Positions 4,624 to 15,001 of a stretch of DNA of 64,000 bases are shown here, piece by piece (the stretch's first letter is position 1; every line of letters starts with the position of its first letter). The notes under the pieces are model-generated. The model was not told the DNA's origin. It saw nothing but the letters and a program-made list of their open reading frames with translations, and did not search any database. Both the position numbers and the translations under genes were made by a program. Origin of the DNA: an uncultured Bacilli bacterium (GTDB lineage: Bacteria; Bacillota_I; Bacilli_A; RF39; UBA660); contig CANQQP010000001.1 of NCBI GenBank assembly GCA_947626055.1, positions 10,672 to 74,671 of the forward strand, read 5' to 3'.

Positions 4624-5256
4624 ATGAATAATTTAGTTGATGAAAATATGTCAATTTCCGAAATTAGGAATATTGTTAGTCATAGAATATATGAATTGAT
4701 TAACAATAATGCAGCCGTTTCTTTTAATATTGATCAGTTAAGAAAAATTCATTACTATCTATTTCATGGTTTATATCAAAACGCTGGTGAATTACGGAAA
4801 GATAACTTATTTAAGAAAGAAAAAATTATTGATGATGAAACAGTTTTATATGTTAACTATCAAGATATCGAAAATTATTTAAAGTATGATTTAGAAACGG
4901 AAAAAAAATATAATTACCAGGGTAAGACTACAGAAGAAATTTTAAAACACTTCGCTAAATTTACTGCTAATATTTGGCAGGCTCATCCTTTTTTGGATGG
5001 CAATACGCGAACAGTTGCTGTATTTATGATGATTTATTTTAAACAACTCGGTTTTCAACCGGATAATGAAGTTTTAAAAAATAATTTTAGCTATTTTCGA
5101 AATGCTTTAGTTTTAAGTAATTGCTTAGGAGAAAATATGCTCCCGCCTTATCAATATTTAATTAAATTTTATGAAAATGTCTTATTTTCCCAAAATAATG
5201 AATTAGATATAAAAGAAATGTTTGAATTTAATGAAAATGAAAGAAGGAAAAGATAA
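4624..5256 (+). CDS. Fic/Doc family protein (variant Fic motif HPFLDGNTRT)
   Basis: 210 aa with the Fic core motif HPFxDGN(T)R. Strong RBS AAGGAGG upstream. The stop overlaps the ileS start (TAATG). Confidence 0.75.
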   Translation: MNNLVDENMSISEIRNIVSHRIYELINNNAAVSFNIDQLRKIHYYLFHGLYQNAGELRKDNLFKKEKIIDDETVLYVNYQDIENYLKYDLETEKKYNYQGKTTEEILKHFAKFTANIWQAHPFLDGNTRTVAVFMMIYFKQLGFQPDNEVLKNNFSYFRNALVLSNCLGENMLPPYQYLIKFYENVLFSQNNELDIKEMFEFNENERRKR

Positions 5257-8365: not shown

Positions 8366-8842
8366 ATGACTAAAGTAATTCACCCTTTAAAACCTATTTA
8401 TGATGAGAACTCAAAAATATTAATTTTGGGTTCTTTTCCTTCTGTTTATTCACGTGAAAAATGCTTTTACTATGCCCATCCGCAAAATCGCTTTTGGCTG
8501 GTTTTAGAAAATATTTTTAATGAAAAAATAACGGATAAAGAAAGTTTTTTACTTAAACATCATTTAGCCTTATGGGATGTTATCGCTTCATGTGAAATTA
8601 AGGGTTCTGCTGATGCTAGTATTAAAAATGTCAAAGTTAACGATATAGGGAGTTTAATAGAAAAGACAAACATTCAAAAAATTTTAATAAATGGGCAAAA
8701 AGCTTATAATTTATACTGTAAATATTTTCAAAATACAATTCCCATTAAAGTTGTAAGTTTACCTTCAACCTCGCCAGCCAATGCCACTTATAAATTAGAT
8801 GATTTAATTAAGATATATAACGATAATATTATTGACAATTAG
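8366..8842 (+). CDS. Uracil-DNA glycosylase superfamily protein (Mug/TDG-like mismatch-specific glycosylase)
   Basis: 158 aa. YAHPQNRFW resembles the Mug FAHPANRFW motif. The N-terminal ILILGSFPS lies in place of the GINPG motif. Confidence 0.65.
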   Translation: MTKVIHPLKPIYDENSKILILGSFPSVYSREKCFYYAHPQNRFWLVLENIFNEKITDKESFLLKHHLALWDVIASCEIKGSADASIKNVKVNDIGSLIEKTNIQKILINGQKAYNLYCKYFQNTIPIKVVSLPSTSPANATYKLDDLIKIYNDNIIDN

Positions 8843-8893
8843 TAAAAATGATGCTAGGATAAAGATGTATTAAATGAAACAACTTTCATATAA
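8832..8893 (+). promoter_or_regulatory. Putative promoter region for the toxI-like repeat RNA
   Basis: TTGACA at 8832-8837, a 17-nt spacer and an extended -10 TGcTAGGAT. A second TATAAT hexamer lies at 8888-8893, immediately before the first repeat. Confidence 0.35.
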
Positions 8894-8897
8894 TACT

Positions 8898-9004
8898 AAA
8901 AAAGTCGGAATACCCTTGCCAAAGTAGGGAATAAAAAAAGTGGAATACCCTTGCCAAAGTAGGGAGCTAAAAAAGTGGAATACCCTTGCCAAAGTAGGGA
9001 AATT
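8898..9004 (+). ncRNA. ToxI/antiQ-like type III antitoxin RNA: about 3.3 tandem 35-nt direct repeats
   Basis: Three contiguous 35-nt repeats (aaaaaagtNggaatacccttgccaaagtagggaNNN). The period is 35, measured from ggaa at 8907, 8942 and 8977. A partial fourth unit follows. The arrangement is promoter, repeats, terminator, toxN, as in AbiQ/antiQ. Confidence 0.75.
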
Positions 9005-9013
9005 AAAAAAGAT

Positions 9014-9047
9014 ACTAGAGTTTAGGCTTTACTCTAGTTTTAATTTC
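9014..9047 (+). terminator. Intrinsic terminator between the repeat RNA and the toxin gene (attenuator typical of type III TA loci)
   Basis: 7-bp stem actagag/ctctagt with an 11-nt loop, followed by TTTTAATTT. Confidence 0.6.
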
Positions 9048-9091
9048 AAAACATTAGCGAACAATATTTCGCAAAGAAAGAAGGCAACAAA

Positions 9092-9589
9092 ATGAAATCT
9101 TTAAAGTTATATTTAATTGATGATGATTATATTAAGTTTTTAAGAAAGTTTGACAAAAAAGTACCATATAATAAAGTCCAAAAAAGGCCATACGTAGGTG
9201 TAGTTTTCTATTATAATAAGATTAAATATTTTGCTCCTTTAACTTCGCCAAAACCCAAACACTTAAAAATAAACAGCAATGCAGTAGATATATTTAAGAT
9301 TAATCAAGGCCAGCTAGGTGTAGTTAATATAAATAATATGATACCTGTTACCTCGGATGTTTTAACCGAATTATTACCCATAATTGAAGATGATAAATAT
9401 AGAGAATTAGTTATTAATCAATTAACTTATTTAAATGATAATAAAAGAAAATTAATTAAAAAAGTTCACGTATTTTACAATTTATATTTAAAAAATCATT
9501 TAAGCCCAAATCAAAAAACTAGATGTTGCGATTTTAAAATATTGGAGAAATACTATAAAAATTTTGAAAAAGAAGAGGTAAAACAATAA
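9092..9589 (+). CDS. ToxN/AbiQ family type III toxin endoribonuclease
   Basis: 165 aa. Conserved ToxN/AbiQ signatures are present: DKKVP, YVGVV, YFAPLTSPKPKH, LGVVNINNMIPV and a C-terminal CDFKILE. An RBS-like AAGAAGG lies 10 nt upstream. Confidence 0.85.
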   Translation: MKSLKLYLIDDDYIKFLRKFDKKVPYNKVQKRPYVGVVFYYNKIKYFAPLTSPKPKHLKINSNAVDIFKINQGQLGVVNINNMIPVTSDVLTELLPIIEDDKYRELVINQLTYLNDNKRKLIKKVHVFYNLYLKNHLSPNQKTRCCDFKILEKYYKNFEKEEVKQ

Positions 9590-9658
9590 AATATTTTTCC
9601 CTTATTTGCAATTTAGTAATTTTTTTAATATAATGTATTACACATAGGTGATTTTTAT

Positions 9659-10249: not shown

Positions 10250-10310
10250 ACTTTCTTTTTTTCTTTGTAAAAAGGACAATTCTGTTTTATAATAATACTA
10301 GGTGATAACG

Positions 10311-11186
10311 ATGAAAAATAAAAAGGGTTTTACACTGGTAGAATTACTAGCTGTTATTGTTTTATTAGGAGTTTTAATTGCTATAGCTGTTCCTAGCGTA
10401 TTAGGTATATCAAAAAAAATAAAAGAAAATATGTATGAAGCTAAAGTCAAAACTGTTGAGGTTGCAGCAGAAGCTTGGATAGATGATAATAAAAATAGTT
10501 GCAAAACATTAAAAGATAAGAATATTGAATTTTTAATTTCTGCCGGTTATTTAAAAGCTGATGACAAAGATGGTAAAATTAGAAACCCAGTAGATAATTC
10601 AGAAATGAATAAAAACACATTAACAACTTATATAGATATAGATAAATTGTGTCAAGGAATTACGACAGTTGTAAACGGATATAATGTTGATCGAAATGTA
10701 GTTGAAAGGGTTAACAAAGATATAAAAACTTATTTCCAAAATAAAACATTTAATAAATCTTGCTTAAGCAATAAAGGTAGCAATCCTTATTTACTAACAA
10801 AAGTTAAAGAATGTATTAACAATTTTAATGAAAGTAATTTTAAAAATCTTTTAGATGATGGTAGTACAATAGATGATTATAAAGTATATTTTCAAAGTAC
10901 TCCTGGTGAAAACCCATATACTGTTAATCGTTATAGATATGAATATAAAATAGATTTATATAAAGATGGCAAAAAATATAGTACTAAAAAACAATATATA
11001 AATGATGATGGCGCTTCTGAAAGGGTAGATATTGATATCCCAAGTGGTTATAAATTTGATAGAACAACATGCAATCGTTTATATTATGATAAGGGAGAGT
11101 TTATTGTTACAACTTCTAGTACTCATTATACTAGCGTAGCATGTGATATTTATTTTGTCCCAGGCATAGCAACGAAAAATTATTAG
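10311..11186 (+). CDS. Type IV prepilin-like protein (class III signal, N-terminal KGFTLVELL..)
   Basis: Short basic leader MKNKK, then the prepilin cleavage/methylation motif G-FTLVE and a hydrophobic helix, followed by a roughly 260-aa soluble domain. RBS AGGTGA with 5-nt spacing to the ATG at 10311. The ORF is open from 10302. Confidence 0.6.
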   Translation: MKNKKGFTLVELLAVIVLLGVLIAIAVPSVLGISKKIKENMYEAKVKTVEVAAEAWIDDNKNSCKTLKDKNIEFLISAGYLKADDKDGKIRNPVDNSEMNKNTLTTYIDIDKLCQGITTVVNGYNVDRNVVERVNKDIKTYFQNKTFNKSCLSNKGSNPYLLTKVKECINNFNESNFKNLLDDGSTIDDYKVYFQSTPGENPYTVNRYRYEYKIDLYKDGKKYSTKKQYINDDGASERVDIDIPSGYKFDRTTCNRLYYDKGEFIVTTSSTHYTSVACDIYFVPGIATKNY

Positions 11187-11240: not shown

Positions 11241-12551
11241 ATGAAGAAAACTGTATGTTTAATTGGAAGACCTAATGTAGGAAAAAGCACCATTTTTAAT
11301 CGTTTAATAGGTGAAAAAAAATCTATAATTGCTGATAATCCTGGAATTACTAGAGATCGTATTTATGGGAATGCAACGTATAAAGATAAAACTTTTCTTT
11401 TAATTGATACAGGTGGAATTGATATGGGTCGAGATAACTTTAATGAAGATATTAAAGCCCAAGCTATGATTGCGATTGATGAATCAGATGTCATTGTTTT
11501 TATTGTTGATGGTAAAGAAGAATTGACAAGTAATGATTATCTTGTTCGCGATATGTTAATTAAAACAAATAAAAAAGTAATTGTTGTAGTAAATAAATTA
11601 GATAATCCTCAAAAAGAAGAACTAATTTATAATTATTATGAGTTAGGTTTTGAAACTGTTATACCATTAAGTGCTATTCATAATAATGGCTTTGATAAAC
11701 TTTTAGACGAAATAACTAGAGATTTTAATGAAAATGAACAAATAGAAGAAGATATTTTAAAATTTTGTATTATTGGGCGTCCCAATGTTGGTAAAAGTAG
11801 TTTAATAAATGCTTTATTAAATGAAGATCGTTCCATTGTCTCCAATGTAGCAGGGACTACTAGAGATGCCATTGATACACGTTTTCGCTATGATAATGAA
11901 GATTATATAGTAATTGATACCGCTGGTATGCGCAAGAGGGGCAAAATATATGAGAATATTGAAAAATATAGTTTAATTCGCTCTTTAAAAGCCATCGAGC
12001 GCAGTGATGTATGTGTCGTTGTTTTAAGTGCCGAAGAGGGGATAATTGAACATGATAAGCATATTGTCTCTTATGCTATTTCTTCAGGGAAAGCTTTAGT
12101 TTTAGTAGTAAATAAGTGGGATACGATTGTTAATCCTAATGAACAAATTAAAAAATGGAAGCAAAAAATTGCCAATGAATTTCAATTTATTCCTTATGTT
12201 AATGTCGTATTTTTATCCGCTAAGACTAAAAAAAGAATGCATATGCTGATGCCCGAGGTTATCAAAGCTTATGAAAATTCTTGTAAGCAAATAAAAACTT
12301 CAATATTAAACAATGTAATTATAGATGCCATGAATTTACATAATCCGCCATCTTATAAAGGCAAAAGATTAAAAGTTTACTTTGTCTCTCAAACCGAAAC
12401 AAAGCCCCCTAAATTTACTTTTCAGGTTAATAGTAAAAACTTAATTCATTTTAGTTATGAAAGATATCTTGAAAATAAAATACGAGAAAATTTTGATTTA
12501 ACTGGCACCCCTATAATTTTACAATTTAAAAATAAAGGAGAAGCAAAATAA
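11241..12551 (+). CDS. der: GTPase Der (EngA), tandem GTP-binding domains plus KH-like domain
   Basis: 436 aa. Two Walker A motifs GRPNVGKST and GRPNVGKSS, two DTAG/DTGG G3 motifs and two NK.D motifs. Confidence 0.95.
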   Translation: MKKTVCLIGRPNVGKSTIFNRLIGEKKSIIADNPGITRDRIYGNATYKDKTFLLIDTGGIDMGRDNFNEDIKAQAMIAIDESDVIVFIVDGKEELTSNDYLVRDMLIKTNKKVIVVVNKLDNPQKEELIYNYYELGFETVIPLSAIHNNGFDKLLDEITRDFNENEQIEEDILKFCIIGRPNVGKSSLINALLNEDRSIVSNVAGTTRDAIDTRFRYDNEDYIVIDTAGMRKRGKIYENIEKYSLIRSLKAIERSDVCVVVLSAEEGIIEHDKHIVSYAISSGKALVLVVNKWDTIVNPNEQIKKWKQKIANEFQFIPYVNVVFLSAKTKKRMHMLMPEVIKAYENSCKQIKTSILNNVIIDAMNLHNPPSYKGKRLKVYFVSQTETKPPKFTFQVNSKNLIHFSYERYLENKIRENFDLTGTPIILQFKNKGEAK

Positions 12552-12575
12552 TTGGTGCTTCTCTTAATTTTGGAT
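12541..12575. terminator. Possible bidirectional terminator between der and the convergent XRE gene
   Basis: Stem gaagca/tgcttc with a 10-nt loop, followed by a T-rich tract. Confidence 0.35.
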
Positions 12576-12827
12576 TGTTTTTTGATCAACTCGTTTTTTA
12601 TTAATAATTTTTTGCTCATCAAAAGTCAGTAAATCATTGGGGCTTTTATCTATAGCTCGACTAATTTTCTCAACAAAATCTAAGGAAACATTTTCTTTTC
12701 CTCGTTCAATGTTGGCTAAGTGTTTAATACTTAATTTATATTTTGAATAATATTTTTCTTGTGATAAATTTTCGGAAAATCGATAGTAACGTAAATTAAT
12801 CCCTAATATTTTATTTAATGATGGCAC
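12564..12827 (-). CDS. XRE-family helix-turn-helix transcriptional regulator
   Basis: 87 aa with an HTH_3-like segment (LSQEKYYSKYKLSIKHLANIERGKENVSLDFVEKISRAI). Confidence 0.7.
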   Translation of the reverse strand: MPSLNKILGINLRYYRFSENLSQEKYYSKYKLSIKHLANIERGKENVSLDFVEKISRAIDKSPNDLLTFDEQKIINKKRVDQKTIQN

Positions 12828-12900
12828 TGCTAATCACGTCCTTAATGTTATTATTAGCATTTTGCTAAAATAAGTCTACCTAGTTATAGCTTGATAAAAG

Positions 12901-12929
12901 TTGACTTCTAAAGCTTTGTCATTTATTAT
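12901..12929 (+). promoter_or_regulatory. Sigma-A promoter (TTGACT-17-TATTAT) for the plus-strand XRE gene, within the divergent regulatory region
   Basis: TTGACT at 12901-12906, a 17-nt spacer, TATTAT at 12924-12929. tgac/gtca inverted repeats flank the spacer. Confidence 0.5.
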
Positions 12930-12949
12930 AAAACAGTAGGTAATGAAGT

Positions 12950-13153
12950 ATGAAAGAAAATTATTGTTATGAAAAATTAAAAAAATTACGAGAAGCTCAT
13001 AATTTGTCATATGCACAAATGGCTAAAGAATTGGGTCTTAGTACGAGTTATTATTGGCAAATTGAAAATAAAACTAAAAATTTATATTATAGTTTAGCAG
13101 TTAAAATTGCCCGATATTTTAGTTTGAAACCTGATGACATTTTTTATGAATAA
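12950..13153 (+). CDS. XRE-family helix-turn-helix transcriptional regulator (Cro/CI-like)
   Basis: 67 aa. HTH segment LSYAQMAKELGLSTSYYWQIENKTKN. Confidence 0.7.
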   Translation: MKENYCYEKLKKLREAHNLSYAQMAKELGLSTSYYWQIENKTKNLYYSLAVKIARYFSLKPDDIFYE

Positions 13154-13198
13154 CTAATAAAGTCCTTTTGCATATATTAGATGTAGGAGGATTTTTTA

Positions 13199-13441
13199 AT
13201 GAAATTTGGTGATGATTTTTTTAAAAAAGTCGAGAAAAAAACTAAGGTTGATAAAGATACAATTATTAGCTTGGCTCAAAAATTACAAAATGGGAATATG
13301 AAAGATGAAAAAACATTAAGGGAAGTTATTAGAACTCTAAGTACTATGACTAATAAAAATGTTAGTAAAGAAAAAGAAGATAAAATTATTGATACGATAT
13401 TAAAAGATAATGTCCCTAAAGATGTCGATAAATTATTTTAA
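13199..13441 (+). CDS. Small sporulation protein, SpoVIF/YjcC-like
   Basis: 80 aa. The pattern FFKKVEKKT.V....I..LA......N..DE.T.R.VI..LS.M.N..VSKE.ED.II..I matches the SpoVIF family as I recall it. Confidence 0.5.
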   Translation: MKFGDDFFKKVEKKTKVDKDTIISLAQKLQNGNMKDEKTLREVIRTLSTMTNKNVSKEKEDKIIDTILKDNVPKDVDKLF

Positions 13442-13465
13442 AATACTAAATTTAGTATTTTTTTT
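13442..13465 (+). terminator. Intrinsic terminator after the spoVIF-like gene
   Basis: Stem aatactaaa/tttagtatt followed by T8. Confidence 0.6.
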
Positions 13466-13495
13466 CATATCTTTTTAGATTTGGCATAGATATTT
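13466..13495 (+). promoter_or_regulatory. Possible sigma-E-type promoter upstream of spoIVA
   Basis: CATATC (-35-like), a 13-nt gap, then CATAGATA (resembling CATACAnT). B. subtilis spoIVA is sigma-E dependent. The match is weak. Confidence 0.25.
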
Positions 13496-13522
13496 ACTAA
13501 GAAAGAAAAATGAGGTGGAGAT

Positions 13523-15001
13523 ATGAACAAAGACGAAATAATTTCGTCCATAGCTAAAAGAGGAAATGGCGAAATATATATAGGTATTGTTGGCGCAGTT
13601 AGAACTGGTAAATCGACGTTTATTAAAAGATTTATTGAAAATTTAGTAGTTCCTAATATTGAAGATGAATACGAAAAGAAAAGATGTTTAGATGAAATTC
13701 CGCAAAGTGCTCAAGGGAAAACTATTATGACAACTGAGCCCAAGTTTGTTCCTAGTAATGGGGCTAATATTAAAATCAATGAATTTTCCGCTAATATTCG
13801 TTTAATTGATTGTGTTGGTTATGTAATTCCTAATGCCACAGGATATTTAGATGATGATGGTACACCAAGAATGGTTAAAACTCCTTGGTTTTCTGATCCT
13901 GTCCCTTTTATAGAAGCAGCGGAAATTGGCACGCAAAAAGTAATTCAAGATCATTCAACGATTGGCATTGTTGTTACAAGTGATGGTTCTTATGGAGAAC
14001 TTGATCGTAATGATTATTTAGAAGCCGAAGAAAAAGTTATTTCTGAATTAAAAAGCTTAGGCAAACCATTTATTGTTATTTTAAATACAATTCATCCTAC
14101 GAATACGGAAACTGTTAGTTTAGCTAGAGAAATTAGTGAAACTTATGATGTAGAAGTAATGCCAATTAGTGTAGAAACTATGAACGAGCAAGAAATATAT
14201 GAAATCTTGAAAAAGGCTTTATATGAATTCCCAGTGTTAGATATCAAAGTAAATATTCCAGAATGGGTTCATGTTTTAAGTAATACTCATGAATTAAAAA
14301 AACATTATTTAGAAAAAATTACCGAGAGTGTCATAAGTGTTGATAAAATTAAAGATATTGATAATATAATTAAGAACTTTGAAGATAGCACATATATTAA
14401 TAAAGCATATATTAGTGAAGTAGATGCTTCAACCGGAATAGTAACCCTTAATTTAGAAAGCCCTGATAGTTTATATAATGATATCTTAAATGAAATGATG
14501 GGGGAATCAGTCACAACTAAAGCCGGACTTCTTAAAATGTTTGCTGACTATAAAGAAGGTAAAAACGAATACGATCAAATTAAAAGTGCTTTAAAAATGG
14601 CTCGTAGCACAGGTTATGGTATTGTTTATCCAACTTTAAAAGATATGAAATTAGAAACACCCGAAATTATTAAACAAGGTTCTCGTTATGGAGTTAAATT
14701 AAAAGCTGTTGCTTCTTCCATTCATTTAATGCGTGTAGATGTGGAAAGCACCTTTGAACCAATAATTGGTAGTGAACTTCAAAGTAAAGAATTAATTGAC
14801 TATATTATGAAAGATTTTGAAACAGATCCGGCGAGCATTTGGAAAAGTGAAATATTTGGTCGCAGTTTAGATGACATTGTTAAAGAAGGCATTCAAGCTA
14901 AATTATCAATAATGCCGGAAAATACTCGTTATAAATTATCCCAAACTGTTACTAAAATTGTTAATAAAGGCGCCAATAATTTAATAGCTATTGTTATTTA
15001 A
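13523..15001 (+). CDS. spoIVA: Stage IV sporulation protein A (spore coat morphogenetic ATPase)
   Basis: 492 aa. N-terminal Walker A GAVRTGKSTFIKRF. Length and overall pattern are typical of SpoIVA. Confidence 0.9.
   Translation: MNKDEIISSIAKRGNGEIYIGIVGAVRTGKSTFIKRFIENLVVPNIEDEYEKKRCLDEIPQSAQGKTIMTTEPKFVPSNGANIKINEFSANIRLIDCVGYVIPNATGYLDDDGTPRMVKTPWFSDPVPFIEAAEIGTQKVIQDHSTIGIVVTSDGSYGELDRNDYLEAEEKVISELKSLGKPFIVILNTIHPTNTETVSLAREISETYDVEVMPISVETMNEQEIYEILKKALYEFPVLDIKVNIPEWVHVLSNTHELKKHYLEKITESVISVDKIKDIDNIIKNFEDSTYINKAYISEVDASTGIVTLNLESPDSLYNDILNEMMGESVTTKAGLLKMFADYKEGKNEYDQIKSALKMARSTGYGIVYPTLKDMKLETPEIIKQGSRYGVKLKAVASSIHLMRVDVESTFEPIIGSELQSKELIDYIMKDFETDPASIWKSEIFGRSLDDIVKEGIQAKLSIMPENTRYKLSQTVTKIVNKGANNLIAIVI

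Follow-up and report, generated by a model that had tools for sequence, protein, structure and literature searches.

A predicted type III toxin–antitoxin operon of the ToxIN family at a variable chromosomal junction of an uncultured Bacilli bacterium

Introduction

Can a short array of 35-nt repeats and the small open reading frame (ORF) behind it, lying among core genes on the chromosome of an uncultured Bacilli bacterium, be read as a complete toxin–antitoxin operon, and if so, is that operon still intact and what has become of it in related genomes? The locus occupies positions 8832–9589 of a 64,000-nt stretch (assembly GCA_947626055.1, contig CANQQP010000001.1, positions 10,672–74,671), which we call the window throughout. 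An earlier note on this DNA had proposed a complete type III toxin–antitoxin module here, and our analysis agrees with it: the encoded protein matches the Pfam ToxN family, the repeats are homologous to the RNA arrays of related loci, and the elements stand in the canonical order. On the strength of these sequence comparisons, the locus is very probably an intact type III toxin–antitoxin operon of the ToxIN family.

Catalogues of toxIN loci on Firmicute chromosomes go back to 2012 (PMC3401426), and annotation pipelines already name ToxN/AbiQ toxins automatically; at least one relative of the window toxin (P0051) carries the NCBI name "type III toxin-antitoxin system ToxN/AbiQ family toxin". 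The window locus is an ordinary member of this known ToxIN/AbiQ family, with all of its computable features except a counterpart of the active-site residue Tyr29 and a score above the Rfam threshold.

The toxin

The protein encoded at 9092–9589 matches the Pfam family ToxN_toxin (PF13958) with E = 5.1e-43 and 147.4 bits, against a cut-off of 25, over profile positions 1–159 of 159. Because this is the sole Pfam family matched at E ≤ 0.01, the protein is not CptN or TenpN. The PADLOC AbiQ model matches as well (5.5e-42), and the four motifs by which the toxin had first been recognised (DKKVP, YVGVV, YFAPLTSPKPKH and LGVVNINNMIPV) are all present in the 165-amino-acid (aa) ORF. A phmmer comparison with solved structures returned E. 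coli ToxN (7d8o, 3e-20), Pectobacterium ToxN (2xd0, 1e-19), B. thuringiensis ToxN (4ato, 2e-19) and, as the most distant of the four, AbiQ (4glk, 1e-11). We also built an AlphaFold2 model on 31 relatives (predicted local distance difference test score 92.3; predicted template modelling score 0.87), for which Foldseek gave template modelling (TM) scores of 0.81 to 7d8o, 0.80 to 2xd0, 0.77 to 4ato and 0.81 to 4glk. In this predicted model the protein has the ToxN fold, with a twisted antiparallel beta core, surrounding helices and a long helix H3. A type II toxin of the MazF/Kid kind was considered and rejected, as MazF structures were matched at only E = 0.03–0.2 with TM scores of 0.26–0.29. 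The layout is not that of a type II system either: no conserved small antitoxin ORF lies upstream, and the RNA array fills that space.

The active site of ToxN_Pa consists of Tyr29, Lys33, Thr52, Ser53 and Lys55 (PMC5086642). In an alignment to the solved structures, T51, S52 and K54 of the window toxin fall opposite T52, S53 and K55 of ToxN_Pa, and R32 falls opposite K33, so that the putative active site retains the Thr-Ser-x-Lys motif. R32, K56 and H57 do not vary among the 31 relatives, and the conservation of S52 and K54 is at least 90%. At position 51 the family consensus has Ser and the window toxin has Thr, an exchange that AbiQ tolerates experimentally (PMC5086642). An exact-protein look-up for the window ToxN returned nothing on record, and no NCBIfam model matches it.

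The repeat array and its RNA structure

Upstream of toxN, Tandem Repeats Finder reports one array at 8897–9011 (period 35, 3.2 copies, 90% matches), which bears out the earlier count of about 3.3 repeats of 35 nt; the array ends 80 nt ahead of the toxN ATG and lies on the same strand. A separate repeat search returned three copies spaced 35 + 35 nt apart. On the plus strand, the locus runs in the order promoter match, leader, repeats, terminator, ribosome-binding site and toxN. Its features are listed here, with bit scores from the family covariance model described below and from the Rfam ToxI model.

8832–8860, plus strand: candidate promoter of the toxI–toxN operon, with −35 TTGACA at 8832–8837, a 17-nt spacer, −10 TAGGAT at 8855–8860 and TG at 8852–8853
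8867–8896, plus strand: predicted 5′ leader stem-loop that begins near the predicted transcription start and stops 1 nt short of the first A-tract
8898–8932, plus strand: ToxI-like unit 1, 35 nt, A6 tract at 8898–8903; family model 50.5 bits; Rfam ToxI 20.5 bits, in register
C8913–G8929, C8914–G8928, C8915–G8927 and U8916–A8926, plus strand: hairpin pairs of unit 1, supported by covariation
G8907–C8920 and G8908–C8919, plus strand: pseudoknot pairs of unit 1, supported by covariation
8933–8968, plus strand: ToxI-like unit 2, 36 nt, A7 tract at 8933–8939; family model 47.1 bits; Rfam ToxI 20.0 bits
8969–9004, plus strand: ToxI-like unit 3, 36 nt, A6 tract at 8969–8974; family model 44.0 bits; Rfam ToxI 16.9 bits
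9005–9011, plus strand: partial fourth unit AAAAAAG, by direct reading
9014–9046, plus strand: intrinsic-terminator-like hairpin, stem ACTAGAGT (9014–9021) and ACTCTAGT (9031–9038), 9-nt loop, tail TTTAATTT (9039–9046)
9080–9084, plus strand: Shine-Dalgarno-like GAAGG, 7 nt before the toxN ATG, by direct reading
9092–9589, plus strand: toxN, a 165-aa ORF (498 nt) for a ToxN/AbiQ-family endoribonuclease toxin

A search of one genome per prokaryotic species (GTDB species representatives) found 517 loci encoding a ToxN relative, often two per genome, which makes the window subfamily very common in uncultured gut Firmicutes. We kept the best 80, nearly all of them from metagenome-assembled gut genomes that bear the label uncultured Bacilli, Tenericutes or Clostridia. 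In 74 of these 80 loci, a 33–37-nt array of about 3.2 copies lies 43–153 nt upstream of toxN; among the six calls without an array, three loci (L024, L057 and L065) have too little upstream sequence and three (L053, L066 and L074) hold a single unit. Three full units are present in 56 of 68 loci, and a related locus typically has three full units and a partial one that begins AAAAAAG, then a hairpin and T-tract ahead of toxN. The partial fourth unit of the window thus has its equivalent ahead of the terminator in most related loci too; in the window, we infer, it would supply the A-tract at which unit 3 could be cut free at its 3′ end. Unit 2 of the window, when trimmed to three leading A's, has a core identical to that of unit 2 in the related locus L003.

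We built the family covariance model from 110 distinct units of homologous arrays in other genomes. Within the 64-kb window, it matches only the three units listed above (50.5, 47.1 and 44.0 bits), with the next best hit at 15 bits, so that the array is not a product of chance. Its 157 hits in 50 sources are all on the toxN strand. The structure that we tested comprises a hairpin, CCCU/AGGG, and a pseudoknot in which an upstream GG pairs with CC of the hairpin loop. In the uncorrected model alignment, 81.0% of cells pair, compared with 77.3% in shuffles, a level reached by 0 of 500 shuffles; changes on both sides are seen in five of the seven pairs, and sliding the 3′ partners drops pairing to 27–58%. 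These figures are conservative, because a one-base deletion in the loop of the AGTGGG subgroup is put in the wrong place by MAFFT as well as by the covariance-model alignment, so that 22 outer-pair cells looked unpaired. With the register corrected by script, the 87 distinct units give the following counts for each hairpin (H) and pseudoknot (PK) pair.

H1: CG 73, UA 14
H2: CG 86, UG 1
H3: CG 82, UA 4, UG 1
H4: UA 65, AU 13, GU 3, UU 6
PK1: GC 78, AU 8, CG 1; none unpaired
PK2: GC 87
PK3: mostly A·G, with CG 7 and UA 1

Compensatory variants occur even within one array, as in L025, whose units carry UAG/CUA and UCUU/AAGA. The covariation supports a fold in which each unit would form a 4-bp hairpin and a 2–3-bp helix between the loop and the 5′ segment, that is, an H-type pseudoknot as in ToxI. 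The 87 units thus provide clean pseudoknot covariation without a crystal structure.

Signals around the array

The promoter-like region proposed immediately upstream of the repeats was recovered by a consensus scan, as a sequence match that agrees with the consensus at 10 of 12 positions and has an extended −10. Its candidate −35 overlaps the final codons of the upstream glycosylase gene, whose stop codon is at 8840–8842; TTGACA stands at the same place in the relatives L081, L083 and L085, and a TTGACA −35 is also found ahead of the arrays on Lactococcus and C. botulinum plasmids. The 36-nt leader that follows folds at −8.1 kcal/mol (z = −5.7), and its stem-loop appears in the minimum-energy fold of 8866–9095 and in the centroid fold alike. 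Leaders with z below −1.5 make up 31 of 57 distinct related leaders, and their sequences are unrelated (e.g., L004, L018, L039, L052 and L061). The stem-loop may stabilise the 5′ end of the antitoxin precursor. We note that the 3′ arm of the window-type leader includes TATAAT (8889–8894), which could be an alternative −10 instead.

Between array and toxin gene, a terminator was found as the earlier note had described it, except that its stem is 8 bp (9014–9021/9031–9038) and not 7 bp. The consensus terminator scan had passed over this hairpin because its loop exceeds 8 nt. Related loci have a hairpin and T-tract at the same position, with unrelated stem sequences. The consensus scan returned no promoter-like site between the terminator and toxN, so toxN expression would rely on read-through, as it does in ToxIN_Pa, for which a read-through of about 10% is reported (PMC7781912). 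A further hairpin, GCGAA-CAATAT-TTCGC, separates the terminator from the ribosome-binding site of toxN at window 9057–9072. L083 keeps it, whereas in L081 one base of the 3′ arm is changed; it might modulate read-through or translation.

Comparison with characterised systems

The assignment to an AbiQ/antiQ subclass, made in the earlier note, stands for the RNA and fails for the protein: the family model scores antiQ at 36 bits and ToxI_Bt at 25, whereas AbiQ scores 48.8 bits against the window toxin compared with 73.6–76.5 bits for the ToxN proteins. The repeat number and length that had been offered as the marker of this subclass do not discriminate, since ToxI_Bt itself has 2.9 repeats of 34 nt (PMC5086642). 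The antiQ class is taken as about 2.8 repeats of 35 nt with antiQ-like sequence and structure, and the window array has 3.2 repeats of 35–36 nt. At the abiQ locus of Lactococcus lactis pSRQ900, antiQ reads AAAATTGGAGTATCCAAGCCATAGTTGGAATTGAT (35 nt × 2.9; E = 6e-7 with the family model) and differs from the AGTGGG subgroup of the family mainly by a compensatory change of C-G to U-A in the outer hairpin pair. The two loci share a promoter, about three tandem 35-nt units headed by A-tracts, a terminator and a toxin gene, and among characterised systems antiQ has the unit closest to that of the window; the toxin fold is also common to both (TM 0.81, predicted model). In contrast, AbiQ is the most distant of the four solved toxins (32% local identity), it has Ser where the window toxin and ToxN have Thr (PMC5086642), and it is plasmid-borne whereas the window locus is chromosomal.

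ToxIN_Bt of B. thuringiensis pAW63, on which the Rfam ToxI model RF02519 is based, shares with the window units the A-tract, GG(U), a 4-bp hairpin and an (A/G)CC loop segment, all in the same order, with the hairpin GCCU/AGGC in place of CCCU/AGGG. ToxN_Bt scores 73.6 bits against the window toxin (TM 0.77, predicted model), and its cleavage at A^AAAA (PMC7781912) fits the A6–A7 tracts of the window. However, protein identity is about 38% (for a ToxN_Bt-like protein), the Lys that corresponds to K55 of ToxN_Pa is in place here but shifted by two residues in ToxN_Bt, and ToxIN_Bt is plasmid-borne, unlike the window locus. The 87 distinct units also join antiQ and ToxI_Bt into a single RNA family.

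ToxIN_Pa and E. coli ToxIN provide the best protein matches among solved structures, with an identical LTSPK motif. ToxIN_Pa also combines a self-processed pseudoknot antitoxin with a toxin-limiting terminator (PMC5086642, PMC7781912), a logic that would extend to the window. It differs in its 5.5 repeats of 36 nt, cut at AA^AU (PMC5086642, PMC7781912), in the Tyr29-bearing insertion that is absent here, and in a protein identity of only about 30%. Local identity to the toxins of C. botulinum and of Lactococcus pUCCL632E is 41–47%. The chromosomal toxIN loci of gut Firmicutes (uncultured Bacilli, Tenericutes and Clostridia, and Candidatus Onthousia) have 55–67% protein identity, homologous arrays and the same terminator position; their genomic positions vary, and several of these genomes carry two tandem modules.

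The junction in related genomes

The module had been placed between a DNA glycosylase gene and engB, and both flanks were confirmed. Upstream lies a DNA-deoxyinosine glycosylase of the UDG superfamily (TIGR04274, E = 8e-40), with ileS farther upstream, and downstream lies YsxC/EngB (TIGR03598, E = 1e-66), beyond which come a pilin-like gene and der. The cassette occupies the space from the glycosylase stop codon to engB's own promoter (TTGCA-17/18-TATAAT). We used EngB relatives to fetch the same neighbourhood from other genomes. The block of engB, pilin-like gene and der is kept in every relative fetched, with helix-turn-helix (HTH) genes, spoVIF and spoIVA following in the closer ones. The positions around this block vary as follows (percentages are EngB identities).

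L081 (98%): one ToxI unit; toxN with an internal deletion of about 300 nt
L083 (97%): one ToxI unit; toxN with a 1-nt frameshift, P55L and G76D
L085 (85%): promoter, three well-formed units and terminator; no toxN (orphan antitoxin)
L087 (81%) and L094 (79%): ileS, glycosylase and a DHH-family gene before engB; a ToxI scan, of L087 only, gave no match
L093 (82%): valS running almost directly into engB
L003 (82%): intact toxIN before engB
L007 (82%): toxIN cassette after engB, in the last codons of engB, with about 80% DNA identity to the L003 cassette
L020 and L029 (EngB identity not compared): toxIN just upstream of spoIVA

The insertion into core synteny that the earlier note described is therefore upheld as an accessory, variable locus and not as a recent strain-specific event, with intact, decayed or toxin-less variants of the junction where EngB is 82–98% identical and a DHH-family gene there in other genomes. 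L081 and L083 come from the two sister strains of the window, at 96–97% DNA identity. When L081 4559–5000 and L083 4255–5000 are compared with window 8843–9658, both are without exactly two of the three repeats, which leaves a 70-nt gap. The orphan antitoxin of L085 (4700–4870 on contig CANQEJ010000006.1, GCA_947594925.1, with its array at 4738–4842) occupies the glycosylase–engB junction and has the TTGACA promoter and a UUCC/GGAA hairpin variant. In L007 (5745–6505), compared with L093 (2395–2410), toxN ends on the apparent ancestral engB TAA stop. The boundaries in the comparisons of L007 with L093 and of the window with L087 and L085 show no mobility signature, be it a target-site duplication, inverted or terminal repeats, or a recombinase. 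L003 was rejected as the occupied partner of L093 in an occupied/empty pair, as further genes separate its valS from its engB, among them a probable topA, judged by its N-terminal sequence. A second toxIN remnant, suspected in the gene-poor stretch at window 12551–13523 from the position of the cassettes in L020 and L029, was likewise discarded, and only small HTH genes and spoVIF lie there. Tandem toxIN modules or arrays are found at L001 5837–7196, at L012 5102–5206 and 5838–5942, and at L023 5835–6685; in L003, another toxN, less closely related (43% identity), lies 2.8 kb upstream of the first. These comparisons support the reading of toxIN as an accessory cassette that is old within this clade of gut Firmicutes, where it is gained, moved and, in some lineages, being lost.

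Viral sequences gave no sign that the subfamily is phage-borne, or that phages carry decoys of ToxI-like RNA: an exact scan of viral contigs for the antitoxin core GGAATACCCTTGCCNNAGTAGGG returned 0 matches, a protein-profile scan of the same contigs returned only 14 distant relatives (29–33% identity), and GenBank phages gave three distant matches.

Single-unit arrays and broken toxins

Repeat number was counted in the loci with enough upstream sequence and in the two sister strains of the window. With at least two full units, toxN is intact in 61 of 65 loci, and with a single unit it is broken in four of five (Fisher p = 3e-4; p = 0.018 when two probably related pairs are each counted once). 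In addition to L081 and L083, the single-unit loci are these.

L053: single unit; toxN stop at codon 137
L066: single unit; toxN stop at codon 39
L074: single unit; toxN intact

All four toxN lesions are different, which makes the inactivations independent, and the requirement of AbiQ for at least 1.8 antiQ repeats (PMC5086642) fits the association between a single unit and a broken toxN. Taken together, this points indirectly to a functional coupling of toxin and RNA in the window subfamily. The presence of intact, single-repeat/broken-toxin and toxin-less versions at one junction suggests, as a testable hypothesis, both a route by which the modules are lost and the number of repeats that they require. 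In a tentative version of this route, which we consider rather doubtful, repeat recombination would reduce three units to one, the under-neutralised ToxN would select against itself through rapid and independent toxN loss, and antitoxin dosage would be the weak point of the system. The orphan array of L085 could protect against addiction by a related incoming toxIN, or it could be a slowly decaying relic. A full-text literature search, non-exhaustive, returned no description of array collapse driving toxin loss or of chromosomal toxin-less ToxI arrays, and the catalogue in PMC3401426 makes no mention of orphan arrays or pseudogenes.

Proposed mechanism

As read from the sequence, a single promoter would drive a transcript of three-and-a-bit 35–36-nt units that runs into a modest terminator, with low-frequency read-through into toxN. 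The further steps proposed here are modelled on ToxIN_Pa, ToxIN_Bt and AbiQ/antiQ (PMC5086642, PMC7781912). The terminator would keep the antitoxin RNA in excess. ToxN would cut its own precursor RNA within the A-tract heading each unit; the known sites are A^AAAA for ToxN_Bt and A^AAA for AbiQ (PMC7781912). Three full units and the partial fourth would then yield exactly three antitoxin RNAs per transcript. Each released pseudoknot would bind head-to-tail between two ToxN molecules and block their active sites in a cyclic complex, probably 3:3. Should transcription stop, for example on phage infection, the short-lived RNA would not be replaced and ToxN would be freed to cleave cellular and phage RNAs at A-rich sites, leading to growth stop and aborted infection. 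By analogy with the family, phage defence and plasmid addiction are putative roles of the window locus.

Alternative explanations

Several observations speak against an intact, working operon at the window locus. The ToxN_Pa residue Tyr29 sits in an insertion with no aligned residue here, which leaves four of five active-site residues with counterparts. The promoter is a consensus match only, in a region where promoter-like sites are not in excess of shuffled sequence, and the second TATAAT at 8889–8894 is a possible alternative −10. The terminator is modest at −9.2 kcal/mol (z = −1.7), and 17 of 200 shuffles fold as well. The sister strains show the locus to be dispensable and decaying. The association of repeat number with toxN integrity draws on few, partly related lineages; L074 suggests that one unit may suffice in some contexts; and a comparison of the window, L081 and L083 does not order array collapse and toxin inactivation, as the three are about equidistant (96–97%) with conflicting sites. 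Lastly, the Rfam ToxI model RF02519 scores the three units in register at 20.5, 20.0 and 16.9 bits, against a gathering score of 50. The weight of this last point can be judged from a calibration on other arrays (L089–L092): the genuine B. thuringiensis array scores 59.4, 47.1 and 38.6 bits, with one of three units passing, a Fusobacterium plasmid array scores 22.5, and the Lactococcus and C. botulinum arrays give no ToxI match. RF02519 is effectively specific to B. thuringiensis/Bacillus, so a sub-threshold score says little about membership in the wider class. It misses the RNA of the window subfamily, and a broader antitoxin model would improve annotation.

That the operon is a silent or inactive relic, with ORF and repeats intact by chance and the toxin catalytically dead or not expressed, seems to us improbable. 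Dead versions are already present in the sister strains at 96–97% DNA identity, broken toxN is also found in 4 of 65 multi-repeat loci of other genomes, and the terminator could fully block read-through to a toxN that has no separate promoter. In the window, however, the 498-nt ORF is uninterrupted and contains all family-invariant residues (alignment A1, including G76) as well as the near-invariant S52 and K54, whereas the L083 pseudogene has P55L, G76D and a frameshift; the three window units score 44–50 bits with every pair kept, and promoter, ribosome-binding site and terminator are in place. A different question is what an active pair is for. Selfish persistence or local genome stabilisation, in which the longer-lived toxin poisons any cell that has lost the locus, is a possible role in place of phage defence, if on the whole an unlikely one. 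ToxIN_Bt has been reported to promote plasmid retention during sporulation (PMC4615649), and genes for SpoIVA and SpoVIF are nearby here; the cassette lies directly upstream of essential ribosome-biogenesis GTPase genes, its immediate neighbours include no other recognisable defence gene, and phage and viral contigs hold only distant ToxN relatives. Yet addiction should hinder loss, and among close relatives toxN has been inactivated independently at least four times and cleanly deleted once. ToxIN_Pa and AbiQ are, moreover, described as abortive-infection systems (PMC5086642, PMC7781912), and the persistence and phage-defence roles are not mutually exclusive.

That the repeats are something other than an RNA antitoxin, such as a coding repeat, a protein-binding operator array or another repeat that happens to stand beside toxN, is highly improbable. 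Two ORFs overlap the array, at 8870–8992 on the minus strand (40 aa) and at 8940–9095 on the plus strand (51 aa), and a stop-free minus-strand frame is present in 61 of 66 loci, above the 39–47 expected from shuffles. We rejected a coding array all the same, as no peptide is conserved. Composition and geometry explain the open frame: the plus strand is purine-rich, the core lacks TTA, CTA and TCA, and three frames have only two internal junctions. The minus-strand translations are not conserved (101 are distinct), and the frame rotates in 35-nt arrays. Unit length among relatives ranges over 33–38 nt, mostly not multiples of three, and the substitutions are compensatory for RNA pairs. The array therefore lies outside any conserved protein-coding frame, given this length variation and these pairing-driven substitutions; together with the full-length Pfam match of the ORF, this means that neither of the two computable objections named in the earlier note applies. 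The array is always on the toxN strand between promoter and terminator, and its homologues antiQ and ToxI_Bt have been established as RNA antitoxins by experiment (PMC5086642). An RNA antitoxin paired with an intact ToxN accordingly remains our preferred reading of the window locus.

Other genes of the neighbourhood

The pilin-like gene at window 10302–11186, which has an N-terminal methylation motif, is highly variable among the genomes compared, encoding 125–396 aa in one or two copies, and its identity lies far below that of its neighbours in L081, L083, L085, L087 and L093–L096. A Fic-domain gene (window 4624–5256, 210 aa) lies just upstream of ileS and overlaps the ileS start; it is kept in L081, L083 and L087 and has weak NCBIfam matches to Fic/VbhT adenylyltransferases. 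Between der and spoIVA (13523–15001), window 12564–13443 carries two small, divergently oriented HTH genes of the Xre type together with a homologue of SpoVIF. This HTH/SpoVIF/spoIVA arrangement is kept in the closer relatives, which points to a spore-forming Firmicute.

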